Shown piece after piece: positions 12,001-60,544 of a stretch of DNA of 64,000 nucleotides. The DNA comes from an uncultured virus (IMG/VR IMGVR_UViG_3300028591_000091) (lineage: Duplodnaviria > Heunggongvirae > Uroviricota > Caudoviricetes): the IMG/VR virus record IMGVR_UViG_3300028591_000091, one strand, 5' to 3'. Under the pieces are notes generated by a model. That model was not told where the DNA came from, searched no databases, and worked only from the letters and a program-made list of their open reading frames with translations. Both the position numbers and the translations under genes were made by a program. The stretch's first letter is position 1; each line of letters opens with the position of its first letter.

Positions 12001-14070
12001 TTACTCAAACAATAACTCTGGGACAGTTGCAACAGCCATACTATAAAGTGCCTTTGCTCCTTCTGTATCAGGATGAACATTGTCACTTGCTAACATATTT
12101 TGATACCATACTGAATCTCCGTTTTCACTAATTGCTTGTGCAAAATCAATGTACTTATACCCACTACTAATAACATAAGCATTTTTATTTATGTTTCTCG
12201 TTAAAGTGCTTGGTACATTTGGAACAGTAGTTAATATCAATTCTATGTTGTAGAATTTGCTTATAACTTCAACTTCTTGTAATGCTTCTAACCAACTGCT
12301 ATTAGGTGCATCTGTAGTATCTTTATCATTCATACCTGGAGCCCATATAATTCTTTTAGGAATACCTCCCCAAGAGATATGTCTTTTTAACGATTCAAGA
12401 CACATTGCAGAAGTGCCACCAGGAGTAGAACTAAACATAAAGTTATTATATCCCTGCTGCACTAAGTAATAAGGCCATCGTCTTTCACTATTAACTGAAA
12501 GGTAACTGTCTCCATATATCCATGTTGATTTTTCTATTGCATCACATTGATAAGACAAATGACAATCCTTCATAGTATCACCGACAGTAATATATAAAGT
12601 TCCATTATTACTACGAAATGCAGCATCCTCCCACTTATAACTGCCACCATTTGTTTTAATTTCAACAAACGTTGAACCTTTATAGTCAGAATGTAGAGTA
12701 ACAGCTATATAATCTGAAATCGTTAAACCATGTTCAGTTTGTGAAGAAAGTGTATCGCCCTTTATATAGGAATATATTTTTGTACTTGTTATTTTTATTC
12801 TTCCTGATTGGTCATAAAATGACTCCCCTTGTTGTCCAAATCCAAGTATCAAATCACCTGTCAATGCTGAAACCTTACCAAAAAAGTTAAGAGTATATGC
12901 GCAAGTGTCACGAATGTTATATTCAGTTTCTCTGAATGTTTGACCACTGATAAGTTCATCTATATTATAGCTAACTCCTCCAGGGAAATTTATTGATTTT
13001 CTGCTTCCACAATCAAGTAATGTATCTAAAAGTGTATTATTAGGTCGGATATAATTAAAAAGATATGGAGACGTAGCAAGATAAACTATTAAATTTGGTG
13101 TTGCATAAAAGGCACTTGTTATGCTGTATCTTATGTATTTTGCATTGTTTGGAACAATGTAATAACTTTGACTCTGTACACCAGAACCTGATATAAAACT
13201 ATCTTCATTGTTTGATGTATATGCACAAACACGTGAAAATTTAAGATTAGTTTCTCTCACATCAATAATATTTCTCCCTGTAAAAAGTTGAGCAAACAAT
13301 TTCTGTCCAGGTGTAACAGGAATAAACTGTGAGGTGAGATACCCAGCTAATTCACCTATTTTACCCGTAGAAGGATAAAGACGAGTATCTGGTATAAGAT
13401 TGCCCATAAGATTGATATTACAATCACGTGATTCTAATCCTAATACGCTGTTATTTATTTTTGAGAATATAATTTTCCCATCATAGGCTCTGTACGGCTG
13501 TATAGTATCTTTTTCTGAGATAATGACACTTTTATTTGCGTAAGAGTAAACAGTATCTATGAATGTCAATCTTATATATCTTGCATTTTCAGGTATAACA
13601 TATACACGTGCTCCATTTGAACCAGAATTTGGAATAAACACCCTATTTATGTCATAAGCACAAACTCTTTTAAATGCATTTGAAGGCATTGTAGATGAGT
13701 CAGTTCTTACTCCATCAATATCTGCTTGTGCTCGTATAGATTCCCCTTCAAAAACAGGTATAAAATCAGTTGTATAATAACCATCGAGGTCGGTTATTTT
13801 TCCAGTATTAGAAGCTAAACATTTATTTGCTTCTACAGTATTTTCGTTTAAAAAATTGACACTTTCATCATAATCGAAACATTTTGCTGTAGCTATAATG
13901 TACTCTTCGTCATTTTTAACACCATTTGACAGTATAGCAACACTATGACTTAATGCTAAATTACGACTATTTAATGTTGGTACATTATCAACGTTCATAC
14001 TTTGCCAATTATCAACATTAGTGAAAGTAGCAGCAGTAGTAGCATCAGTTTTCATATAGCGGCATTGCAC
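12001..14070 (-). CDS. silent variable C-terminal cassette 4, SGNH/GDSL esterase domain
   Basis: Starts within site D; NWQSMNVDNVPT matches the repeat of the expressed gene; YGDSY, PGMND, DNVHP blocks. Confidence 0.8.
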   Translation of the reverse strand: MQCRYMKTDATTAATFTNVDNWQSMNVDNVPTLNSRNLALSHSVAILSNGVKNDEEYIIATAKCFDYDESVNFLNENTVEANKCLASNTGKITDLDGYYTTDFIPVFEGESIRAQADIDGVRTDSSTMPSNAFKRVCAYDINRVFIPNSGSNGARVYVIPENARYIRLTFIDTVYSYANKSVIISEKDTIQPYRAYDGKIIFSKINNSVLGLESRDCNINLMGNLIPDTRLYPSTGKIGELAGYLTSQFIPVTPGQKLFAQLFTGRNIIDVRETNLKFSRVCAYTSNNEDSFISGSGVQSQSYYIVPNNAKYIRYSITSAFYATPNLIVYLATSPYLFNYIRPNNTLLDTLLDCGSRKSINFPGGVSYNIDELISGQTFRETEYNIRDTCAYTLNFFGKVSALTGDLILGFGQQGESFYDQSGRIKITSTKIYSYIKGDTLSSQTEHGLTISDYIAVTLHSDYKGSTFVEIKTNGGSYKWEDAAFRSNNGTLYITVGDTMKDCHLSYQCDAIEKSTWIYGDSYLSVNSERRWPYYLVQQGYNNFMFSSTPGGTSAMCLESLKRHISWGGIPKRIIWAPGMNDKDTTDAPNSSWLEALQEVEVISKFYNIELILTTVPNVPSTLTRNINKNAYVISSGYKYIDFAQAISENGDSVWYQNMLASDNVHPDTEGAKALYSMAVATVPELLFE

Positions 14071-49380: not shown

Positions 49381-50022
49381 TTACATGATGCTTTCGAGTT
49401 CTTTCTTCAAGTTTATAATCCTGAAGAATCTATCCACACATTTCCAAGAGGTCAACCATCTTTGTTCTCTATCCTCTGGTTCATTAGATGTTCCATAAGA
49501 TATAAACAGGTCTTCTATTCCTACTACCGAATCTGCTAATATCTCTTTCAATGTTTCATTCCCAAGATATTCCTTAGCCTTCCCCGGTTCTAACTCCGCC
49601 AAACTAAGATGGGGAATGTAGGAAGAATATTCAGACTTAACCTCAAATTTTATACTCAGTCCTTTATTGATCAGAGACAGTACCTTAAAAAGTGGTGTCC
49701 CTTTTCGAAGTTTCAGGATCAAATAGTCAGTATCATTTTCAAAAGATCCAAGTTCGAAAAGGTCTAAGACGCTATAGAAATTATCTCCCTTGATCATTCC
49801 TTCAAGCCAATCCCAATCCTCTTTTCCTAAGATCTCCTTAATATCCCCTAACAATCCTTCACATTCTATCTTCTTTCCTTGTGAGTATAGTAAAGTAATG
49901 TGTGAGTCAAGTTCCACTCCAGTATCCTTAAGATCCTCCTCTTTGAAGACACAACCAAGACTAACAGGAGTGGTCAAGTTCATCGCCAGCATTAAACAGC
50001 TATTAATATCTTTCTTTTCCAT
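49381..50022 (-). CDS. 2H phosphoesterase (T4 gp57B/Acb1-like)
   Basis: Two HxT/S motifs: SHITLLYS and YIPHLSLA. Confidence 0.7.
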   Translation of the reverse strand: MEKKDINSCLMLAMNLTTPVSLGCVFKEEDLKDTGVELDSHITLLYSQGKKIECEGLLGDIKEILGKEDWDWLEGMIKGDNFYSVLDLFELGSFENDTDYLILKLRKGTPLFKVLSLINKGLSIKFEVKSEYSSYIPHLSLAELEPGKAKEYLGNETLKEILADSVVGIEDLFISYGTSNEPEDREQRWLTSWKCVDRFFRIINLKKELESIM

Positions 50023-53000
50023 TATCCTTTACCTTGATTTTTTAACCTAAACTTTGTCTTCATAGTCTTCAGATCATTCTTTAGACTAGAACCTCCTTGA
50101 TTGAATCCCTCTTCGTCACTGATCGTAAGTCCGAGAGCTAACAGATTATTAAGGAACAACTGATTATCCTCCTTTGCTGTATCTTTTCTTGCACCGGTGA
50201 TAAATTCCCGTGCGTTTCTAGATAACAGTGCGGACAACTCATCTTCACCTATCTTCTGTCCAGTCAATCTATACCTACCTTTACCTAAGATCGGCTCATT
50301 ACGCTTAGAACTGATATCTACTCCTGCCATACTTGTCGTCACTTTAGCTGAGTAACTGGGGATATGATATAATTCCTCTAAGTTCATCCATCCGCACTGT
50401 AATTTTTTCTGCACGGGGACAAACTTACCGGTCATTCCACTCCTTACTTTCTCATACTCTTCGGGACTTAAAACTTCTTTCAATTCCCCAAGATCAGTAA
50501 CTTCAGATTCTGGCATTAATATCTCAGACTGACTTTCTACTCCAAGTTCATCCATCCATTTCTCAACAATCTCCGGAGTAAAATCACTAAAGCAACCTAC
50601 CTCAAGATAATATACCTCCTCAATCGGCTTAGACTCATGCAACTTTATAAATTCTTCTGTGCTTAAATCTGTATAACGGCCAGGATAATATTTCTCAATT
50701 AGCGGCTTTATTTTCTTTTGCCCAGATTTTGTTTTCTTATACTCCTCTACTAAATCATATATTCTATGAACACAATTACCTAAGGATTGCTCCATCAATA
50801 CACCAGCTATCTTACGATTTCGATTATCCCGTTATTTATCATAACAGGTCAGACTATATCATTCCATTTAACAGGATCGATACACTTAGTCTTTGAATTT
50901 AGAACAATATATCCTAAACTGCTGATCCTCATTTTCTTTGAGTTCCAGCATTACTATCGATTTTCTTTACTCTCTCGAATAAAGCGACAAATCATTATAG
51001 TTTATCGTTGAATAGGGATTCATCACACATTCGCACCTGTACTGCTTTCCTGTATTCTTATCAACCATTATAGGCATCAATTCATCAGGCTTTACTACAG
51101 ATACCACACCCTTACCTCCATAGTTATTAGTAATTTTTGAACCGACCATTAAAGTAGTTCTCTTTATGAGTCTAATTCTGACCGTGTATACAACCTTATA
51201 TTCATCTCTATTCATATTAATAGGACGAAGACGATCAGCTGCTACATACTCCGGGAACTTATCATAAATTATCTTTCGGTCTGCATTCTTTTCATACTCT
51301 TCGGCTACTTCTTTTGAGGTGCGCGAAAAACGATAATCTGGTGTTTTTACTGATTTAGGTATTTTCGGCTTAGTTTGCTCCTGAATCATTACATCAGAAA
51401 CATAAGCCTCATCAATGTTATTCGGAACTTTCAGGTAATCTTCTGTAGTAAAATCTGTAATATTCTTTCCAGAAACTTCACCAAAAATTCCACCCAACTT
51501 CTCAGCTAGGACTTTATTAACATCATCCAATCTGTTAGTCTTATATACACCAATTACATTATCTCCTGACTTAACCCTAGTTCCTATAGGCGCAATCCAT
51601 TTAAGAGCTGAGGTGTTTTTTATATTAAGCTGAAGATCAATAATGCTATAATGTACACACCTATTAGCAAATGATTCTGATACTACAACGGCATCTTCAT
51701 TTACATAACCAAAATATGCATGGAACAAAACTAATGCATTAAGTCCACTCTTATAGGTATCAGTAGTTAAGTTAGTGGCTCCTGAAATTATATCACCCCT
51801 CTTTAACTTCTGACCTACCTTAACTTTCGGCTCAGTATATACACAAACATCATTCTGTGATTGTATAGCTGTGCGCCTAGGATGATTTATAATATCACCG
51901 TCAGGCAATTCTATAACAATGTTGGATTCTGTTATTTCTTTGACTTTTCCTTTATCATAATTAAATTTCTCATTCAATACATTATCTTTGAGCTCCTCCT
52001 TATGCCCAGTTCCTACAAGAGGCCTTTGAGCATTAACTAGAGGAATTGCTTGTTTTAACCAAATATTCTGTTATTTATCACAACAGTTTAGACTATATCA
52101 TCCATGTTTTACCTATAGTCGTTGATCTCAAAATATAAATTCTGAGTTGCTGATTCAAGATTAAACTCATTCCAGCAGTTAGTAAAATTTTCATAGTTTT
52201 CTTTTCCTATGGCACTTTATAAACAAAATGCTAGTTCCCATTGATATACGTACCGAGTCTGTATAATTAATGAAAGGAATTCGTCTAGTAGTTTCAGAAA
52301 GACGATAATCTGGTTCAAGATCTATTAAATCTGTCTCTTCAACCTTTACCATCTTTCTTTTCATTCTATATTTAACTTCAACCATTCCACTAGGGTCTGG
52401 CTTAAGTCTTCGGTTTTTATAATCTACAAATTCTGATGCTACAACTTTTGAATTAAGATAATCGATGTAAAATAACGATACTCTCTGAAATTCTTTATTA
52501 TAAGCACTATACAAAACGCCATCGTCTGTAATTTTTGTGCAAACAGTTAGGCTATTTTGAATGTTTGTATTGTTATTTCCTTATTCTTATTTTTTCAAAT
52601 AAGAGTAGTACTATATCATCCTAATTTAGGTTTCACATATAGTCGTTGAATATAAAATCAGTTTATATTAATTACGTTTTGTTTTTAAACCCTTTTCTAT
52701 TAGGTATTTTACGTAATTCATACTAAATCTATTTTATACTGCTGATTGGGTATTACCTTCCCAGCAATTAAGTGAAATTATTCTCGACAAATAATTTATC
52801 GGTGTCATTTATACTCTATTTTTCGATAGAGATTAGAACTATATCTTTTCTTTTGTACATAGTCGTTGAATCTAGAGAATATAACCCTAGACTGCTGGTT
52901 TTCCAAAAGGACATTCCAGCAATTCTCAAAATTCTATCTCTTTTTTACAGAGAACAGACTAACCTATGTAATCTGCAAAATCAATTATGTCTGCAAATGT

Positions 53001-53930
53001 GGGATTAAAAGCCACCGTTTCAGGCACAGTAATTTTATTTCCCAAGCTTTCTAAGTTTGCAGCATTAATTCCCGGTGGTACTTGTATTCCAGTATCTCCT
53101 TTGGAATCAGAACTTCCTTTAAAAAACCTAGCTGACATTGTAGAAATGATCGTAAGTTGGTCCGCCAGTTTTCCATACTTTACAAAATAACTAGAGATGT
53201 GTCTACGAGCGCTATTATAAGTGCGTCCGTTGTTTGATCTAAAGATATGTTTCATAAAGCCTGTTGGTACACTTTCTATCGACTTATCAATAATCAAGTC
53301 CTTTAAGCGATCATCTCCAAAAGCTAAGCAATCATTAATCAGACGCGTAGTAATGTATTCGGGTTTATAATCAATATCTAACTTAACTTGGAATTTCTTT
53401 GTTTGATATTCCGATAATTTAAGTAGTTCTTTGATTTCACCCTCAGCATCATCTATCTCTTCATATTTTAGCTTAACTTCTTTATCTATCAGTCTTAAGT
53501 TTGGATCATTTCTTTTAATTTTCAAGATTCGACGATTAATATCATATCTTCTATCGTAGTCAAAATTTATGATATAATCACCAGAGCCAGACATTCTTAT
53601 TCGACAATCATAATCAGAGCTTAGGCTGTTTGTTGCAATTCGATAAGCTCCCTCAATGATGAAAACCCCTTCAACTTCTTTGGGAACTTCGAATTCACTG
53701 TATTTGATTTCGTCTGGTTTATCGGTTGTTGTATATTCTATTCTAACCTTGAATGTAGCAGTTAATCCATTCTCTACATAATAAGAGGCTGGTTGATCTG
53801 CTTCTTCAACGATAGAATGTGTCAGTGTAGCTATCTTAACCTTAGGATTAAAAATATCTGCACTACCAACAAACCTTTCTACCATTATCTTTGCTCCTCG
53901 ATTCTTGAAATATTCGTTAAAGCTACTCAT
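50022..53930 (-). CDS. rpoB: phage DNA-directed RNA polymerase beta subunit, 5 exons: 53930-52971, 52805-52798, 52578-52228, 52059-51004, 50820-50022 (3174 nt, ~1057 aa)
   Basis: Spliced junctions restore beta motifs: DTPINNNTNIQNSL (cf. ETPEGPNIGLINSL), MGTSMLKQAIPL (cf. MGANMQRQAVP), NPYSTINR; also GYVNEDA, GSKITNNYGGKGVV, GQKIGEDE. Exon sum is a multiple of 3. Confidence 0.88.
50821..51003 (-). ncRNA. group I intron, beta intron 4 (183 nt)
   Basis: P UGCUGGAA, Q AUCAGCAG, R UCAAAGACUA, S GAUAUAGUCU; exon ends in U, intron ends in G; restores TI|NRK. Confidence 0.85.
52060..52227 (-). ncRNA. group I intron, beta intron 3 (168 nt)
   Basis: P, Q, R and S present; restores SM|LKQ. Confidence 0.85.
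52579..52797 (-). ncRNA. group I intron, beta intron 2 (219 nt)
   Basis: P, Q, R present; S variant UAGUACU; restores TPI|NNN. Confidence 0.8.
52806..52970 (-). ncRNA. group I intron, beta intron 1 (165 nt)
   Basis: P, Q, R present; S variant UAGUUCU; restores FAD|TP. Confidence 0.8.
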
Positions 53931-53931
53931 T

Positions 53932-54288
53932 TTATACTAATGCTTTTATATTTAGCTGTTTATACTCACAATCTACCGAGTTAAAGAATTCCTCAATCTC
54001 ACCTTTAATCTGATCTTTTAAATCCCGAGCTGCAACATATTCGCCCATAGGAAGACCTGCAGTGGATCGAAAGAAAGCTGTATAAGTAACTAGATAATTG
54101 TAAGTATCTTTCAATTGATATAATACCAGCTTTACAGAAAATAATTCGTATTTTTGTGGGATTATATCAGCCAATCTGTCATATAAGTTGTCCCTAGCCT
54201 GAATTATACTAGGGTCTTGACTGTCTAATACATTATAAGGTATTTCATAAGACAGAGCTATGTTATAATATGTATTATCTCCACCCAT
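53932..54288 (-). CDS. hypothetical protein within RNAP operon
   Basis: 118 aa, 1 bp from the beta start. Confidence 0.7.
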   Translation of the reverse strand: MGGDNTYYNIALSYEIPYNVLDSQDPSIIQARDNLYDRLADIIPQKYELFSVKLVLYQLKDTYNYLVTYTAFFRSTAGLPMGEYVAARDLKDQIKGEIEEFFNSVDCEYKQLNIKALV

Positions 54289-54293
54289 AGTAT

Positions 54294-54476
54294 TTAAAAA
54301 TCAGCATCCATCATATTTCCTCCAGCTTTCTTTGTCTTAGCTGGTTTTTCTTTTTCTTCAGCCACATCCGTTTTAGGTGGGGTAGCTGTATTACAAACTA
54401 CCTCACCATCTTTACGAATGACTATGCTGATTGATAACTCCTTTTCAAAATTAGGAACATCAAATTCAATCTTCAT
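54294..54476 (-). CDS. small hypothetical protein within RNAP operon
   Basis: 60 aa between beta-prime and 53932. Confidence 0.6.
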   Translation of the reverse strand: MKIEFDVPNFEKELSISIVIRKDGEVVCNTATPPKTDVAEEKEKPAKTKKAGGNMMDADF

Positions 54477-54493
54477 AATCTTTTGCCTTTTCT

Positions 54494-57400
54494 TTATTTG
54501 TTTTTAGTATCATCAAGTTGGTTATTCAAGAGAAGGCCAAGAATTACTCCAGTCATAACATCATTTCCAAGATTTACTTCTCCTCGTAATGCCTTATTTA
54601 CTACTCTTGAACTATAACCATAACTTAGAACAGTATAGAACGATTTCTTTGAAAGTACTGATGTCTGAGTTCCCTGATATTCGATATCCTCAATCTGTGC
54701 TGTCTTAGGATTATACGTTATATTTGTTAATCCTGTGAACAACAACTCAATGATATCTTCCTGTGTAGAGCTCAAGCTTGATACTCCACTCTTTGCGAAA
54801 CCTCCATCAGTAAGGGTATAAAACTGCTTTCGGAAGATAAGATATATGTCGTTCAGTCTATTTTTACCTAGTTCAGAAATCACGTTGCTCATATTAACAA
54901 CTCCTGAACAGATTCTATCAAACTTCCTAATTTGGGTCCCTTCTGAATAGAAATACATGCACTCCGGATTGTACTGATATGTTCTATCCCCGATTTTTAC
55001 TTCAATATCTCCATTCTTGTTCTCCACATATCTGATAACCCCATCATCATATGCATAACAGTCCGAAATCAAGATGTTATCCTTTTCAAAATATCTAAGT
55101 CCTGCAGATTTTCTAGCTCGCATAAGATCGATCATAGAATTAAGTTTGCTAATTGGACTTGATGTATTATAAGCACAACATACGATCTCACCCTTTTCAA
55201 ATTTATCTTTTGCTAATGTTACCAAGTTATCTGGACGAGGATACTTAAGCTCTCCTCCTCCTCTAACCTTAAGAAATATAAATTTTCCTTCTTCTCTGAA
55301 AGTGCATGTCTTAGGAGCATATAAATATCCATCCTTGGACAAAACCCTTTCATGGCCCAAACCCAAATATATTCCTATATTTAGATAGACTATATCTTAT
55401 TTAACTATAAATTAGATATTATTAGTCGTTGAACTAGTTTTTAAAATACTAGCTGCTGATTAACCTTTTGGTACTTCCAGCAATTTTATCTATTTTTGCA
55501 CGGCAGTCATTTATTTTAGAAGGCTTTAATTTACCGTGCTTCAGTCCCAGTGCAGCTTGAGTCGTTCCTTCAGTTAATGATCGAGCGAAAGACAAACCTA
55601 TGGCAGCCCCAGGAGTAAAATCTTTAAAGAATTTATTTATAAGGTCGGGAGTAATGACGTTAAGGTCTCCCGTTCTTTTTGATACAATAGATCTCACTAA
55701 AACCAAATCATCCTCGTCTGGTTTCCCTTTAAAATCTGGGTAAACTTTTCCGGAAGGAGCAGTTCTACCACCAGCTTTATAACGAGGGATTAGGATTCCA
55801 GGATTCTCAGCATCTTCTCCATCTTGATAAACATAATTATTCAAGAGGAATGAAATTTGTCGCGTTAATGATCCCGAATTTGGCCACTTCTCTAGTCAAC
55901 GCGCAGAAAACTAGAGATGTTAATGTTAGTCATATTTCTATAACTATTAGACTATATCACCTAAGTACAGTGTCTAGTCGTTGCTCTTATCACTCTTTAC
56001 TTCCATCTCTGTTGCGGTCTTCTCTAATCCTATCTGGTGTTTTTCATTAAGATCTCTAAGTATCTCTCCCAAACCAGTTAAGAATGCACCGACAACAGTA
56101 ATAATTTTAATAATTGTTTTTGGATTCATCATATAGGTAATAAGTTGCTGATTAAAATTGTTTTTCTTCCAGCAATTAAACTGTATTTTAACAGGCGCAC
56201 CGTTACAATTCGGGCTTAACCTTTCACGCCTGAAACTTTGATACTCTGTAAGCTCCTATTTTCAATGCTGTGGAATATCATATCTTTTTCTGAAAGACCA
56301 GTTAGAAGGGAACCTTTTGTTATTACGGGGACCTCTGAAACTCCGCTTACTATCAATTGAGGCATATTGAGGGCGGATATACTAGATATCTTTACTCGAC
56401 CTGCACGATTAAGCTCGTTTTTAAGATCTTCAGAAAATGAAGCTTCAATCTCTCTTTCATATTGCTCATATTTCTCTGTCAAAAGAACCAATTTTTGTCG
56501 ATCCGTTAGGTCAGGAGAGTCAGCAATATTACGAATTTCCTGATAAGTTTTTGTATTAGTGGGAGTGTAAAGCGTAGGAAAATCAAACGTTACTACACCC
56601 GCAAGAGATACTACTCGGAGACAGAATTTTTGAAGTTCTAGTCGTTTTTCAATTCCATCATCAGGATAATCATATAAGAATGCACTAAGCTTCATTGCGG
56701 ATTTAGCATCAAATCGTGTATACTTATCTTTGGTGAAATTAAAATCATCCATATTTCTTCCCAGAATTTTTGAAATTCTAATTTTACCATAAGTTGTTAC
56801 CTCTGATTGATACTTTAATCCATCGCCAAAATCATAAGTAAATACAATAGGCGTTCCAATTTTTAAAATTTTATTTACTTCAACATCAAGAACCAATTTC
56901 TTATAATCATCATAAAAGTATCTTGGCTCTTTAAGCTCCTCTGGATCTTCCGGTGTCCATTCAGAAGCTACTGCTAACCCATTAAGTACTTCATGATTTA
57001 TCGTGGCAATCGGTTCGCGATTTTTCTTGTAATAAGCTACATATCTGGGGCTCATCTTACGAAAAGTGTCCTCAGAAACCTCGCTTGGTACTAATTGACT
57101 ATTAGTTAAGAAATTTCTTACTTAACATAGACTGTATCATCTCGCTTTATTTACGCGGTTTTGTACATCAGTCGTTGAAAAGAAATCATTATAGATTCCT
57201 TCTGCTGATCTGAATTTAATTTTCATTTCCAGCAGTACTCAAAATTTTCTTCTACATAACATAGAAGCTACTCTTTTCAAATAGCTACAGTATCCGATAT
57301 ATCTAATAATCTCTTATTAGTCTAGCATATATCTTCATCCCTAATAAGGGATGGTGAGCACTCTAGGGAAAATTATTTCATTTCCTATGCGTTACGCTGA

Positions 57401-60400
57401 TAACCATATAAATTACCAGCTCGGTATTAGCTATAAAACTTTCACCGAATTTGCTCACTAATAATTTGAAACATTACTGCTTCAAACGGCAATATTGTTT
57501 ACCATCAAAATCCTTTATGTTCAACCAGGCACACTACTTCTGGCCCGCCTTTTGGCAGCTATACATCTCTGTATAGAACAGACTATATCTTCATCTCTAT
57601 TAAAAGAGAGTCTGGCTTTTCCACTCGTGATTTGAGTGTACTCCCATTTGGGATAGTCGTTGAGGTTGTAAAATATCAAATAGTCAGTTTGATATTCATT
57701 AATTATCTTCGTTATAAAAAGACCACCCGTGATCCTTCTTTACGACACCATTTACCCAGTTACTCATAGTGGTTTTGCTTACGTTTGCTGCTTCTGCAGC
57801 TTCCTTTATACAACCATATATAGTACCGTCAGGGGAAATAACTTTCTTTGCGTTAACTTTATCTCCTCCATGTTTTTGTTTAGATTTCATATACTCTCTA
57901 TAGGCAGGATCTAAATATTTTTTCTTATGAGTCTCTGACTGTTTTCGTAAATATTCTGGATCTTTAGCAAGCCTTTTTGCAATCTCTGATCGTCTTTTTC
58001 TATACTCAGGATCATTTACATCTAATTTACTAAAATTTTCTGCAGCTCTTTTTCTAAAGCTTTCAGGGTCTTTTTTAACACTCTCTTTAGCAAGTTCTGA
58101 CATTTTTTTCTTAGTTTCCTCTGTATGTCTTTTTCCTTTATGAGATTCAGAAAGTTTCTTTTTGTGTTCTTCTGATTTTGGAACACCTTTCCTAATTTTT
58201 GATAGCTTTTGTTTATGATCTTCTGATAGTTTTCTGCCTTTTCTATCTTTAGAAGCCCTCTCTTTTTGTTCTTGGGTCCAAAGACGACCAAAATTTGGAT
58301 TATTTTCTCCTTTTAATAACTCCGACATTTTCTTTCTATATTCATCTGATTGGACTTTAGCAAGAAATCTTTCACGGACTTTACTTGCAGTTCTAGAAGA
58401 AAAATGCTTTGTTACTGTAGAATTCCTTTCTATTTGGTTTCGTCTATTACTATTGCTATTGTGCCCATTAAACATGAGATTTGCAGCAGTTAATAACCCA
58501 TCTGAGTCGGGATATACTTCCAATATAACCAAATGAGCCATTAAATGATATCTAATAGGCATTTTTACGAGATTTTCCTTAATATCTGTACCACCTAATG
58601 TTTTTGGAAAAATATGATGTACCTCGTAGTATACAGTTGACAATTCTTCCTCTGTCATTGATTGGCATCGTTTTATCAATCTAATATATAATCTTAAGTA
58701 TTTACATCTATGATTATATTCAATTTCTGTGAGACCCTCCTTTTTTATTTCAGGGAGGTGATAAGTCTCATAAATTAAATTAATTTCATCCATATAATTT
58801 TAATTTTAAGCTTTAGTTTGTTTCTTTACAACCTGCTGATTGTCTCTATCCTATGAATTTTTAGGGTTGGTGACTAAATCCAACATTAACCTCCTATCAT
58901 AAGCCTATCAAGAGTTTCCAGCATTTAACCAGATTTTATAACACCTATTTTGTTAAGCGTTAAGAGGAGAACAATGAAGAATCTTTTACATCGCTGTAAT
59001 TTTATAATTGATTCTTCAGACTATACCTTTCTCTCTTTGAGATTCTGTATATAGTCGTTGGGCTTAAGACATTATAATCTTAAGTTGCTGATCTGGATTT
59101 CAAAATATCCGTTCCAGCATTTAGCAGAATTTTACAGCAACCTGTATTTTTGATCGCTGGTGGAAATCCGATTGCGTATTCGTCCCACAATTTTATTTTT
59201 ACGCAGAATAGACTATATTCCATTTATCCTTTGATTTATCACCTAAGGATAGACTATATTTTCTGTTGTGCCTTCTATAGTCGTTGAACCTAAGTTATTT
59301 TAAACCTAGATTGCTGATTTGAGTTTAACCTCATTCCAGCAGTTTAAGCATTTTACTTGCACAAATTATAGGTTATGCAAACTGGGCTGGCGATTCACCA
59401 AAACCATTCGTCCTTCTGCATATTCTTTGAAGAGTTTCTGAGTCTCCTCGTTCATTGCCTCCTCGCGTGTAGCTTTCTTCGCTTCTTTCTCAGTAAAGTT
59501 AAGTTTTTCCATGAGATGTTTGATGAAATCCTCTCTAAGCATCTCGTATGCGATCGACGTCGGAATTTTTAGTTCATCAATTTTAATATCCATGGCAGGC
59601 ACAATAGGACATCTAGCTGAATTTTTTGTTCGTACAGCATAGAGTTCTCGTGCCAAATTTTCTTTACTAGTATTAAGAAGGTTGGTTGCTTGTTTGATAA
59701 CTGCATTTAAGAACGCACGGAGAAGCGCAGTATATCGAACTCTTTCTCCGGGAGTTGAAAGTTTACTCATTACGGTTTCATAGTTTAAGCCGTCGTTAAC
59801 TTTCTTATCCTCTACACAGCACAGCCAAATAATAGCGCTATACAAGGTAGAAAGTTTGTGAGTGCCCATCATTTTCTTACCATCTTTATAGGCAAGTGTA
59901 AAGGGTCTCATAGCGGCGGGCAAAACTAGATAGTAATGATTAATTAGTTTTCTAAATTCTGTTAAGCTCTCCGGAAAATGCTTACTAATAATTTCGAGTA
60001 ACCCTTCATAAGAACATTTTTTCTCATCTGTAATAACTTCTGAGATAACTAGTTCTTTCTTTTTAGGGTTATAATCAAATTGGCAAGTATCGAACACTTT
60101 AATTCCCAGTTTCTTTGATCCTCTACCTGCTGAATATCCTAATCTACTAAGGTTTTTGTCATTAAAATTCATAACGATCTTAGTATCTTTGAATATCTCA
60201 TCGAATTTCTGTTTAAAGATTTCGAATCGTAGAGCATTAAGATAATAGAAAGGTAGTTCAATTCTTGCAAATCTTCTTAGTGCTGCATCTTTTGTGTAAA
60301 CCTTAGTACCGCAATAGGGACAAGGTTGTGGGTCCGGAGAGGCTTGACGAATTTTTCCACACACACATCTATCAACCATCGGAGAACCAAAAATTTCAGT

Positions 60401-60544
60401 ATCATAAACTCCTCCTGTAATTGGTTGGAGTCTATCGAATTTAAGGTTTAGGTCTCCGTGTGAATAGAGTACATGATCTTTTCCATCAGACCTCGAATAA
60501 TCTAGAATGTCATCATCTGTTAATAGCTCTAATGATATTGCCAT
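54494..60544 (-). CDS. rpoC: phage DNA-directed RNA polymerase beta-prime subunit, 8 exons: 60544-59375, 59220-59153, 58974-58956, 57512-57501, 57294-57281, 57098-56226, 55884-55533, 55357-54494 (3372 nt, ~1123 aa)
   Basis: Zn finger CVCG...CPYCG; spliced NRQPSLH EYSLFCVKIKLWDEYAIGFPPAI CSPLNA DFDG DTVAI QLVP; bridge helix RSLQSIKVSGVPNSGSLTRQ; trigger loop TEGTTQAALGLKHGG. Confidence 0.9.
55358..55532 (-). ncRNA. group I intron, beta-prime intron 7 (175 nt)
   Basis: P1 GCACGGU/GCCGUGC with U-G; P, Q, R, S; P9 with GGAA tetraloop; restores KHG|GH. Confidence 0.85.
55885..56225 (-). ncRNA. group I intron, beta-prime intron 6 (341 nt)
   Basis: P1 CAGGCGU/GCGCCUG; P, Q, R, S; restores GV|PNSG. 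Confidence 0.85.
55974..56132 (-). CDS. 52-aa intron-internal ORF (not an endonuclease)
   Basis: MMNPKTIIKIITVVGAFLTGLGEILRDL...KSND*, between Q and R; stop overlaps R. Confidence 0.35.
   Translation of the reverse strand: MMNPKTIIKIITVVGAFLTGLGEILRDLNEKHQIGLEKTATEMEVKSDKSND
57099..57280 (-). ncRNA. group I intron, beta-prime intron 5 (182 nt)
   Basis: P1 AGCUAU/GUAGCU; P, Q; R CGACUG and S CAGUCU covary; restores AI|QLVP. Confidence 0.85.
57295..57500 (-). ncRNA. group I intron, beta-prime intron 4 (206 nt, different IB-like core)
   Basis: P AAUUCGGUGAA, Q AAUACCGAG, R GUAACGCAUA, S AAGAUAUAUGCU, P3 GUGAGC/GCUCAC; restores DFDG|D. Confidence 0.8.
57513..58955 (-). mobile_element. group I intron, beta-prime intron 3 (1443 nt) carrying HNH homing endonuclease
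   Basis: P near 58916, Q near 58834, R near 57654, S near 57580; restores NA|DFDG. Confidence 0.88.
57699..58793 (-). CDS. intron-encoded HNH homing endonuclease with NUMOD3 repeats and C-terminal HTH
   Basis: EVHHIFPKTLGGTD--ENLV...H--AH; repeated SEEHKKKLS/TEETKKKMS; IYGCIKEAAEA. Confidence 0.88.
   Translation of the reverse strand: MDEINLIYETYHLPEIKKEGLTEIEYNHRCKYLRLYIRLIKRCQSMTEEELSTVYYEVHHIFPKTLGGTDIKENLVKMPIRYHLMAHLVILEVYPDSDGLLTAANLMFNGHNSNSNRRNQIERNSTVTKHFSSRTASKVRERFLAKVQSDEYRKKMSELLKGENNPNFGRLWTQEQKERASKDRKGRKLSEDHKQKLSKIRKGVPKSEEHKKKLSESHKGKRHTEETKKKMSELAKESVKKDPESFRKRAAENFSKLDVNDPEYRKRRSEIAKRLAKDPEYLRKQSETHKKKYLDPAYREYMKSKQKHGGDKVNAKKVISPDGTIYGCIKEAAEAANVSKTTMSNWVNGVVKKDHGWSFYNEDN
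58975..59152 (-). ncRNA. group I intron, beta-prime intron 2 (178 nt; 3-prime end probably A at 58975, alternative G at 58972)
   Basis: P1 CAGCGAU/GUUGCUG; P, Q, R, S; restores AI|CSPLNA. Confidence 0.8.
59221..59374 (-). ncRNA. group I intron, beta-prime intron 1 (154 nt)
   Basis: P1 UUGCAU/GUGCAA; P3 UGCUU/AGGCA; P, Q, R, S; restores SLH|EYS. Confidence 0.85.

Follow-up and report, generated by a model that had tools for sequence, protein, structure and literature searches.

Elements as short as 154 nt interrupt the genes for the beta' and beta subunits of a multisubunit RNA polymerase (RNAP) on the minus strand of DNA from an uncultured virus, which raises the question of whether such elements are true group I introns and whether they are spliced in the cell. 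Here, we report the boundaries, structure and relatives of the 11 introns in these two genes and the RNA joints recorded across them; the window is the whole stretch of DNA analyzed (64,000 nt). The small introns are very probably genuine group I introns, members of one phage-type (IA-derived) family cut to the bare catalytic core and interrupting both RNAP genes of a phage related to the published Jug (jumbo gut) phages.

Polymerase genes and intron boundaries

Seven introns lie in beta' and four in beta, and both frames are open once all 11 are removed. The spliced proteins are 65% (beta') and 67% (beta) identical to the orthologues of locus L001, and all 11 junctions were gap free in protein alignments with intron-poor orthologues. 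A megablast search of the phage collection returned no match to the window. RNA evidence came from assembled metatranscriptome contigs (X2, X5, and X6) and DNA evidence from X1. The genes and short exons are as follows.

54494..60544, minus strand: beta' gene of a multisubunit RNAP, 8 exons, 7 introns, 1123 aa spliced
50022..53930, minus strand: beta gene of a multisubunit RNAP, 5 exons, 4 introns, 1057 aa spliced
59153..59220, minus strand: beta' exon 2, 68 nt (boundary and protein alignment)
58956..58974, minus strand: beta' exon 3, 19 nt, CSPLNA (boundaries, protein alignment, and RNA)
57501..57512, minus strand: beta' exon 4, 12 nt, DFDG (letters present within the X2 joint 57098 to 58956)
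57281..57294, minus strand: beta' exon 5, 14 nt, DTVAI (X2 RNA joint and protein alignment)
52798..52805, minus strand: 8-nt micro-exon ACACCGAT (TPI) between introns H and I (boundaries and protein alignment)

The seven small introns are listed below.

59221..59374, minus strand: intron A, 154 nt, after beta' codon 390 (NRQPSLH/EY); no P2, no P8; 8-bp P1 with U.G
58975..59152, minus strand: intron B, 178 nt, in beta' codon 413; 4-bp P8; final base A, not G
57099..57280, minus strand: intron E, 182 nt; 5-bp P2, 3-bp P8
55358..55532, minus strand: intron G, 175 nt, between KHG and GHER; no P2, 5-bp P8
52806..52970, minus strand: intron H, 165 nt, after beta codon 320; 5-bp P2, no P8
52060..52227, minus strand: intron J, 168 nt, interrupting beta codon 440 (MGTS-M-LKQ); P2 small, P8 absent; used to build covariance model R1
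50821..51003, minus strand: intron K, 183 nt, in beta codon 792 (STI/NRK); 5-bp P2, vestigial P8

The larger introns and their open reading frames (ORFs) complete the set.

57513..58955, minus strand: intron C, 1443 nt, between NA and DFDG in beta'; full-size IA-type core; carries an ORF
57699..58793, minus strand: homing endonuclease ORF in intron C, 364 aa, HNH/NUMOD3 (Pfam NUMOD3, 8.8e-15; phrog_655, 4.6e-33)
57295..57500, minus strand: intron D, 206 nt, in beta'; different group I core, with P2 and full P8
55885..56225, minus strand: intron F, 341 nt, in beta' codon 719 (SGV/PNSG); no P8; small ORF in P6
55974..56132, minus strand: 52-aa ORF inside intron F, conserved in F-site introns of relatives
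52579..52797, minus strand: intron I, 219 nt, in beta; P6 extended to 90 nt; 4-bp P8

Seven lengths given in a preliminary description (154, 165, 168, 175, 178, 182, and 183 nt) were reproduced exactly, and its range of 50821 to 59374 is bounded by the last base of K and the first base of A, with C, D, F, and I also inside. Boundaries of intron B were set by gapless protein alignment, a 7-bp P1 with U.G, and a 4-bp P10; its P7 G-C pair is unchanged, and it is matched by the covariance model (E value, 1.1e-7). Alternative boundaries for B ending in G were enumerated by hand, and each of them disrupts either the frame or the alignment. Introns A to E crowd the NADFDGD active site of beta', with A, B, D, and E lying within 45 codons around C. 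The endonuclease ORF is confined to C, whereas the seven miniatures, D, and I are without any ORF; no solved structure matched the endonuclease by sequence, and the 52-aa ORF of F had no PHROG match.

Core structure and covariation

One core (UGCUGG/CAGCA and ACGACUA/UAGUCU) is common to 10 of the 11 introns. Element parsing, minimum free energy (MFE) folds, and RF00028 alignments of C, D, and G showed P4, P7 (with its bulged nucleotide and G-C pair), the P3 pseudoknot, P5, P6, and P9 to be present. In every small intron, P1 and P4 are retained together with a P5 of 3 to 4 bp, one P6 and one P9 hairpin, and a P3/P7 pseudoknot that contains the guanosine-binding G-C pair; P7.1 and P7.2 are absent, only 2 to 4 nt separate P7 from P3', P2 is missing or 4 to 5 bp long, and P8 is missing or 2 to 5 bp long. 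A U.G pair marks the 5' splice site in 11/11 introns (the exon ends in U opposite a G of a 4- to 8-bp guide helix), and omega-G stands at the intron end in 10/11, the exception being B. MFE folds of A (z, −5.75) and J (z, −3.58) gave P1, P4-P5, P6, P7, and P9.

The canonical group I core includes P8, a hairpin between P3' and J8/7. It is full in C and D and 2 to 5 bp long in B, E, G, I, and K; in A, F, H, and J, the 17 to 20 nt between R and S leave no room for it, and this absence counts against the reading as genuine group I introns, as do the final A of B beside an unchanged P7 G-C pair and the Rfam scores given below. The preliminary description had P2 absent and P8 reduced to a few nucleotides in the 154-nt intron A and the 168-nt intron J: the loss of P2 stands for A and fails for J, which has a 4- to 5-bp hairpin at that position, and P8 is in fact absent from both (19 to 20 nt from R to S). 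Its broader description, group I introns with P, Q, R, and S cores and a stripped periphery, is supported.

Covariation was assessed with a partner-swap test (10000 permutations) on 18 introns, of which 10 belong to the window and 8 to relatives. Own versus permuted partners gave −6.09 versus −3.12 kcal/mol for P1, −4.35 versus −1.57 for P3, −6.53 versus −1.78 for P6, and −6.08 versus −2.34 for P9, and for none of these helices did any permutation reach the observed value. P4 covaries as UGCUG/CAGCA, UGCUA/UAGCA, and UGCCG/CGGCA, and in intron E, the R/S pair is switched from A-U to G-C.

No intron reached the Rfam gathering threshold (50 bits), the best scores being 46.5 (C; E value, 1.1e-8), 45.6 (D; 2.1e-8), 36.9 (G; 8.3e-6, with P8 positions deleted in the alignment), and 24.4 bits (E; 0.048); the remaining 7 of 11 had no RF00028 match at an E value of ≤0.05 in the whole-window search. 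A narrower E-value search lost group I matches, and the whole-window search recovered four. The C alignment contains a 44-nt insertion after R that forms hairpins at the P7.1/P7.2 position, as read from an alignment to a model that is not subgroup specific.

The signature CAACGACT occurs nine times in the window versus 0.72 expected (0/100 shuffles reached nine), always on the minus strand (52117 to 59286), and TGCTGGRA occurs 12 times versus 2.54 expected. Covariance model R1 was built with a hand-written structure from J alone because MAFFT alignments put P3', P5, and P9 out of register. It matched all seven small introns (E values, 7.8e-34 to 6.7e-4) and nothing significant in the window outside 50.8 to 59.4 kb. 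Since the 3' ends of introns with P8 insertions (B, E, G, and many IMG/VR matches) are cut off or misplaced in R1 alignments, intron lengths were taken from protein-guided boundaries and pairing from partner swaps.

Splicing in metatranscriptomes

X2 includes same-strain contigs with 0 mismatches to the window and carries joints exactly at A (59220 to 59375, skipping 154 nt), F (skipping 341 nt; also in X6), G (55357 to 55533, skipping 175 nt), and K (skipping 183 nt; also in X5). In one X2 contig, the 26 letters of exons 5 and 4 stand directly between beta' exons 6 and 3, which shows the removal of C, D, and E. H and I were removed with the 8-nt exon kept in X5/X6 RNA (the same eight letters bridge the X5 joint 52578 to 52971), and J was removed in X5 RNA. 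Several contigs have only 30 letters on one side of the joint, and the listed joints include none across B, where X2 cover is low. These joints show precise intron excision and exon ligation in vivo, with the 12- and 14-nt micro-exons retained in same-strain RNA. The proviso of the preliminary description that the elements might splice neither in vitro nor in vivo thus falls away, because the metatranscriptome joints record their removal in vivo.

Such joints might instead come from intron-less alleles of co-occurring strains, either transcribed or present as contaminating DNA, which can occur in RNA libraries. X5 and X6 contigs do represent variant strains, with synonymous changes relative to the window beside the J, G, and H/I junctions; changes of this kind are typical of alleles, and the joined forms of H, I, and J could reflect intron-less alleles of those strains. 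As an explanation of the joints as a whole, we regard this as very improbable: the X2 pieces run without mismatch over 727 + 194 nt at K (194 nt being one side of that joint) and over 874 nt at exon 6, X2 supplies four exact joints plus the 26-letter micro-exon join, and these genes contain introns in every relative examined. Moreover, the X1 DNA contigs, which hold the stretch at a share of 0.91, contain none of the exon joints and are continuous across A, B, F, G, and I, across most of H, and across the 3' junction of K. Hardly any credence is left for decayed remnants in polymerase pseudogenes; the lost P8, the final A of intron B, and the empty Rfam gathering search would fit that idea, but both frames are intact once the introns are removed, the helices covary, the exons are joined in RNA, and the intron family is conserved across many phages.

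For genuine group I introns, splicing would follow the standard two-step, guanosine-initiated transesterification, and the window introns may self-splice; help in the cell from RNA chaperones or a phage or host protein is probable because so little peripheral structure remains. A stronger version, in which the miniatures are not autonomous and fold and splice only with a dedicated phage maturase-like or host chaperone protein (the chemistry still being group I), deserves serious consideration, although we hold it to be somewhat short of an even chance. It would account for a P8 missing from four introns and shrunken in five others and for AT-rich sequences (GC content, 0.25 to 0.35) with helices of only 3 to 8 bp, and a shared cofactor would be economical for many copies per genome (a published mean of 18.5 introns in Jug phages [PMC12880540]; 9 to 34 R1-matching places in each of six Staphylococcus jumbo phages). 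Against it, no candidate cofactor was identified, intron C alone encoding a protein of known type (an endonuclease); the L9 loop GUGAUAAAU, which A, J, and K have in conserved form, might make a tertiary contact through RNA alone, and the compact Azoarcus intron self-splices.

Relatives, minimal size and origin

The window phage is a huge ruminant-gut relative of the Jug phages, and the window is one more lineage of a phenomenon published for those phages and annotated in Staphylococcus jumbo phages. Reported for Jug phages are 2513 group I introns in 136 of 139 genomes, with a mean of ~206 nt (PMC12880540, Sci Adv 2026; preprint PMC12363816), and metatranscriptome support for splicing of 37 of 76 introns (PMC12880540). 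The beta' N terminus of Jug phages is 62 to 68% identical to that of the window, their loci share the core motif and have RNAP-gene introns of 161 to 193 nt, and five introns with micro-exons likewise crowd NADFDGD; in Table S3 of PMC12880540, the L001 contig belongs to group Beta and two motif-bearing contigs belong to group Alpha. Within the phage lineage that it shares with them, the window is a distinct relative (closest match, 68% amino acid identity): sites E, F, G, and I are shared, whereas B, C, and D lie a few codons off the alpha-group sites. The F site is occupied in 6/6 relatives with a cleanly resolved junction (L001, L199, L200, L201, L203, and L205), and G-site introns of relatives measure 969 to 1190 nt.

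The virion RNAP beta gene of the cultured Staphylococcus jumbo phage Madawaska (MW349129.1) has two tandem R1 matches (73.8 and 58.4 bits) separated by a 35-nt exon, with the P8-less layout (19 nt from R to S), in a coding sequence (CDS) annotated in GenBank as a three-piece join. These introns are even shorter (146 nt each), and neither the bacterial host nor the phage lineage (AR9-like, with split RNAP subunits) is related to that of the window. The parts consulted of the Madawaska preprint (bioRxiv 10.1101/2020.12.14.422802) rely on protein alignment for exon prediction and report neither sizes nor structures for the introns. An AR9 virion RNAP locus gave only a weak R1 match, to the 3' part of an endonuclease-bearing intron, which does not place AR9 among the carriers of the miniature class.

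Compactness with loss of most peripheral domains is shared with the Azoarcus pre-tRNA-Ile intron (IC3), the usual small model ribozyme, which differs in subgroup, host gene, and proven self-splicing. The Azoarcus intron retains P2 and P8. At 205 nt (PMC3895272, PMC13168695), it is 22 to 51 nt longer than the small introns of the window. The suggestion that the size is new is weakened because equally short members of the family are essentially already catalogued, a condition that the preliminary description itself set for its refutation: 137, 139, and 161 nt in relatives, and 146 nt among cultured Staphylococcus jumbo phages with GenBank CDS entries written as joins. The miniature family of jumbo phages is defined by the motif UGCUGGAA...CAGCA...UCAACGACUA...AUAUAGUCU by a size below about 200 nt, and by detection with R1, and 7/7 small introns conform. 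Across 155 IMG/VR loci, R1 gave 117 matches at an E value of <1e-3, and 25 of 150 distinct public matches, plus window introns A, F, H, and J, form the P8-less class. We tentatively suggest, with somewhat less than even confidence, that this family (137 to 183 nt, ORF-less, without P7.1/P7.2, and with little or no P2) contains a discrete P8-less class that is active in vivo (A and F are spliced in same-strain RNA) and could represent the smallest architecture among natural group I ribozymes. The literature searched contained no description of the class in those terms, and introns appear there as model matches or CDS joins.

Subgroup IA2, the phage type, has extra P7.1/P7.2 helices between P7 and P3', and phage IA2 introns with homing endonucleases include T4 td and nrdB, Twort, and SPO1. 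Intron C resembles these in its full core, its insertion after P7, its HNH/NUMOD ORF, and its position in a conserved motif of an essential gene; the seven miniatures differ in having no ORF and no P7.1/P7.2 and in the loss of P2 and P8. IA2 accounts for over half of viral group I introns in one account (PMC11835236), and a further intron with a homing endonuclease, the PhiPA3 gp210 intron, lies in an RNAP gene (PMC11620839).

The ORF-less miniatures may descend from endonuclease-carrying mobile introns such as C; in relatives, full-size introns of this kind are present at the G and I sites. Maintenance or spread of the miniatures is likely to depend on endonucleases acting in trans, which mobilize ORF-less introns (PMC3984707), and on co-conversion when a neighboring endonuclease intron homes; this would explain the crowding of A, B, D, and E around C at NADFDGD. 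Co-conversion is something we infer, because the introns carry no sequence signal of recent copying within this genome. Spread within the phage's own genome, as the preliminary description had it, is likewise not specifically supported, the window introns being 65 to 71% identical to each other and equally similar to introns at other sites in relatives.

Introns that fall below the Rfam threshold cut these essential genes into exons down to 8 nt, so gene callers report fragments rather than two polymerase subunits, and five introns within 45 codons of the RNAP active site, around one endonuclease intron, make an extreme pile-up of selfish elements on a conserved target. If the P8-less class holds, P8 would be dispensable for a natural group I core, and either RNA alone would suffice or a phage-specific cofactor would replace the scaffold. 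A P8-less intron of 137 to 154 nt splicing in cells would then lower the accepted minimal size of the group I class and would be a very small scaffold on which to base structural studies and tools for trans-splicing or circular RNA.

RNA polymerase genes and intron boundaries

The minus strand at 50022-60544 encodes beta' and beta of a multisubunit RNA polymerase (RNAP). Pfam assigns RNA_pol_Rpb1_2 to the first beta' open reading frame (ORF) and RNA_pol_Rpb2_6 to one of the beta ORFs; both frames are split into many pieces. The 64-kb window contains neither a tRNA gene nor a match to any Rfam family at the gathering threshold. Intron boundaries were guided by the proteins of L001 (a relative on a 254-kb contig, 67% amino acid identity, with an uninterrupted beta and just two introns in beta') and by the group I rule of a U, paired to G, as the last base of the 5' exon and a G as the last base of the intron.

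Group I introns of the beta' (A to G) and beta (H to K) genes
59374-59221, minus strand: intron A, 154 nt
59152-58975, minus strand: intron B, 178 nt
58955-57513, minus strand: intron C, 1443 nt
57500-57295, minus strand: intron D, 206 nt
57280-57099, minus strand: intron E, 182 nt
56225-55885, minus strand: intron F, 341 nt
55532-55358, minus strand: intron G, 175 nt
52970-52806, minus strand: intron H, 165 nt
52797-52579, minus strand: intron I, 219 nt
52227-52060, minus strand: intron J, 168 nt
51003-50821, minus strand: intron K, 183 nt

Excision of the 11 introns left open frames of 1123 amino acids (aa; beta') and 1057 aa (beta), 65% and 67% identical to the spliced L001 proteins, with gaps at none of the 11 junctions. 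The U at the 5' exon end lies opposite G in all 11 (exon-guide helix, 4-8 bp), and 10 end in G. Some of the exons between introns measure 68, 19, 12, 14 and 8 nt, and five introns (A-E) are packed into 45 codons around NADFDGD. Because boundaries were placed by frame, alignment, P1 U.G pair and terminal G, the seven lengths in the preliminary description (154, 165, 168, 175, 178, 182 and 183 nt) are exact, each being reproduced to the nucleotide.

Intron B ends in A (58975) despite an unchanged guanosine-binding P7 G-C pair; its boundaries were set by a 7-bp P1, a 4-bp P10 and a gapless protein alignment. Its P9 loop (58990-59000, minus strand) carries CAGCGAT, the same seven letters as its 5' exon end, and therefore could compete for the internal guide sequence. 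In the relative L201, the 1146-nt G-site intron also has a terminal A (L201 16213), with a 6-bp P10 by hand reading.

The F-site intron (between SGV and P of beta') is present in the six relatives with a cleanly resolved F-site junction (L001, L199, L200, L201, L203 and L205), and its P6 holds a conserved ORF of 43-69 aa in the window and seven relatives.

F-site ORFs
55974-56132, minus strand: window
13131-13307: L001
12238-12375: L199
14123-14272: L200
14487-14615: L201
12948-13154: L203
13700-13837: L205
16164-16346: L158

The protein (consensus MEKxIxILTAVGAIxxGxGEILxQYN) has a hydrophobic N-terminal helix, had no family match in PHROG and is not an endonuclease. Between beta' and beta (53932-54476, minus strand) lie two short ORFs of 60 and 118 aa, conserved in L001, with no Pfam or PHROG match.

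Core architecture and helix covariation

Within the window, CAACGACT occurs 9 times (0.72 expected) and TGCTGGRA 12 times (2.54 expected), nearly all copies on the minus strand at 50.9-59.3 kb. P4 (UGCUGG/CAGCA) and P7 (ACGACUA/UAGUCU, bulged C) are common to ten introns, D excepted. The 5' part comprises P1, an optional hairpin at the P2 position and a P3 of 5-7 bp, followed by P5 (3-4 bp), P6 (5-7 bp) and P9 (5-8 bp). Minimum free energy folds of A and J contain exactly P1, (P2), P4-P5, P6, P7 and P9 (z, -5.75 and -3.58). The P, Q, R and S core attributed to the seven small introns (A, B, E, G, H, J and K; here, miniatures) holds, by shared P4 and P7 in all seven and by these two folds.

The P2 position is empty in A, B, C, F, G and I and bears a 4-5-bp hairpin in E, H, J and K; of the 154- and 168-nt introns, both said to lack P2, A does and J does not. 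The R-S distance in A, F, H and J is 17-20 nt, which after P3' and J8/7 leaves P8 without space, so that P8, earlier described as cut to a few nucleotides in A and J, is missing altogether. Distances of 25-33 nt in B, E, G, I and K yield hairpins of 2-5 bp, and intron C, at 67 nt, has a full P8 as well as additional hairpins that follow P7.

Alignment to the Rfam group I model RF00028 gave 46.5 (C), 45.6 (D), 36.9 (G, with the consensus P8 positions deleted) and 24.4 bits (E); seven of the 11 had no match at E<=0.05 and none reached the 50-bit gathering score. Intron D belongs to a distinct, more canonical group I lineage (206 nt, P2 present, 7-bp P8). It lies 12 nt downstream of C and 14 nt upstream of E, and relatives hold small introns of 164, 193 and 218 nt without the family motif. 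The last P7 pair of E is altered from A-U to G-C. H (52806-52850) and I (52579-52620), both minus strand, have an extra nucleotide in the P7 3' strand (AUAGUUC and AUAGUAC versus AUAGUCU); if bulged out, the G-C pair is retained. The P9 loop (G)UGAUAAAU/C recurs on differing stems in A, J, K and the second L001 intron (13024-13443), and may make a tertiary contact.

Because helix sequences differ between copies, we used a partner swap, in which each 5' strand was paired with its own or other introns' 3' strands, across 18 introns (ten from the window, and eight from L001, L160 and L200 whose boundaries were set by protein).

Pairing energies with own and permuted partners
P1: own -6.09 kcal/mol, permuted -3.12 kcal/mol
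P3: own -4.35 kcal/mol, permuted -1.57 kcal/mol
P6: own -6.53 kcal/mol, permuted -1.78 kcal/mol
P9: own -6.08 kcal/mol, permuted -2.34 kcal/mol

For each of these helices the observed value was matched in 0 of 10000 permutations. The P5 signal was weaker (own partner best in 8 of 18), and P4 showed compensatory changes (UGCUA/UAGCA, UGCCG/CGGCA).

Splicing in RNA

Public ruminant-gut runs were used as assembled contigs (RNA runs X2, X5 and X6, and X1, the DNA run best covering the stretch), several joints having just 30 letters on one side. The X2 pieces listed here had 0 mismatches to the window. They joined 59220 to 59375 (skipping 154, intron A), 55357 to 55533 (175, intron G), 55883 to 56225 (341, one place of freedom, intron F) and 50817 to 51001 (183, three places of freedom, shorter side 194 letters, intron K). 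One further contig joined 57098 to 58956 via 26 letters, the reverse complement of exons 4 and 5; C, D and E were therefore removed and the 12- and 14-nt exons retained. None of these joints, nor the X5 and X6 ones at H-I and J described next, was present in X1, whose contigs span A, B, F, G, I, most of H and the K junction. Since the X2 joints match without mismatch and are absent from this DNA, the strain of the window itself removes A, C, D, E, F, G and K from its transcripts by splicing.

X5 and X6 derive from variant strains, and both join 52578 to 52971 via eight letters, which in X5 are ACACCGAT, the micro-exon between H and I, and in X6 a synonymous variant; in X5, J, G and A are removed as well. 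For H, I and J these joined forms may instead reflect an intron-less allele of the variant strains. An X2 contig (52798-53462) retains H unspliced and stops precisely at the base preceding intron I (52798); it has the form expected of a 5'-exon intermediate of intron I splicing, and could also be a chance assembly end. A joint of 57492 to 59397 (1904 nt skipped, eight other letters inserted) occurs in both X1 DNA and X5 RNA. A co-occurring strain seems to carry a D-like intron between VL and VNRQPSLH in place of introns A-C; this site is occupied in L001 and in the Jug phages (published jumbo gut phages).

The original observation is confirmed and strengthened by the RNA evidence: of the seven miniatures, A, E, G and K are excised exactly in X2. 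Core elements, exact exon ligation, the U.G pair and the omega-G of ten introns are consistent with the standard group I pathway. We infer this two-step guanosine pathway for the window introns: exogenous guanosine would attack after the U of P1, and the 5' exon would then attack after the omega-G seated in the P7 G-C site.

Relatives, origin and spread

IMG/VR was scanned with the pattern UCAACGACUA-N10-35-AUAUAGUCU, giving at least 155 loci, many of them on contigs of 360-400 kb and frequently at a density of 2-3 per kb, with at least 117 matches at E<1e-3 to R1, a covariance model built from intron J. R-S spacing was bimodal: of 150 distinct matches among those listed, 25 had 17-20 nt (without P8) and the others 23-37 nt, 37 nt being the upper bound of the pattern. 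Fifty RNAP loci were 62-68% identical to the window beta' N-terminus. When 15 representatives were aligned in spliced form with protein as the guide, 85 junctions emerged, of which 22 were clean U...G introns below 260 nt (139-218 nt), 16 of them with the family core. In the same active-site region as the window, hand reading of L160 showed four introns (176, 161, 191 and 174 nt) with exons of 12, 28 and 23 nt between them; the introns in L200 measure 137 and 139 nt. Intron J also matched (blastn) the cultured Staphylococcus jumbo phage Madawaska (MW349129.1), whose virion RNAP beta CDS carries a three-piece join in its annotation; its two tandem 146-nt P8-less introns (R1, 73.8 and 58.4 bits) flank a 35-nt exon, and their removal leaves an intact 684-aa frame. 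Six Staphylococcus jumbo phages have 9-34 similar places each.

The preliminary interpretation is partly right: the introns are real, but given family members of 137, 139 and 146 nt, 154 nt is typical rather than minimal. Nor is the family new: it has already been published from Jug phages and appears in the annotation of cultured jumbo phages, and the window introns join it as new members. For Jug phages, 2513 group I introns (mean, ~206 nt) are reported in 136 of 139 genomes, splicing is backed by metatranscriptome reads for 37 of 76 introns, and sheep and cow gut huge phages are named as outside relatives (PMC12880540); Table S3 of that paper places the L001 contig in group Beta and two motif-bearing contigs in group Alpha. 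A preprint on MarsHill and Madawaska (bioRxiv 10.1101/2020.12.14.422802) describes RNAP genes that introns disrupt, as predicted from protein alignment, its accessible text giving no sizes. The Azoarcus intron is called "compact" at 205 nt (PMC3895272, PMC13168695), and searches of the open-access literature turned up no account of natural group I introns that are smaller or lack P8.

Intron C encodes an HNH/NUMOD3 homing endonuclease. The miniatures look like endonuclease-free derivatives, because the G and I sites of relatives hold introns of 969-1304 nt and the L201 G-site intron shares its 5' region with that of the window. Homing of C with co-conversion would cluster A, B, D and E around it; endonucleases acting in trans are known to mobilise introns without an ORF (PMC3984707). 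The proposed spread within this genome found no specific backing: window introns are 65-71% identical to one another and resemble introns at other sites in relatives to the same degree, a comparison that gives no indication of recent copying within the genome. The family is old and common to many phages. What may be left as novel is the recognition, inside this jumbo-phage family, of a P8-less class of 137-168 nt that is spliced in vivo.
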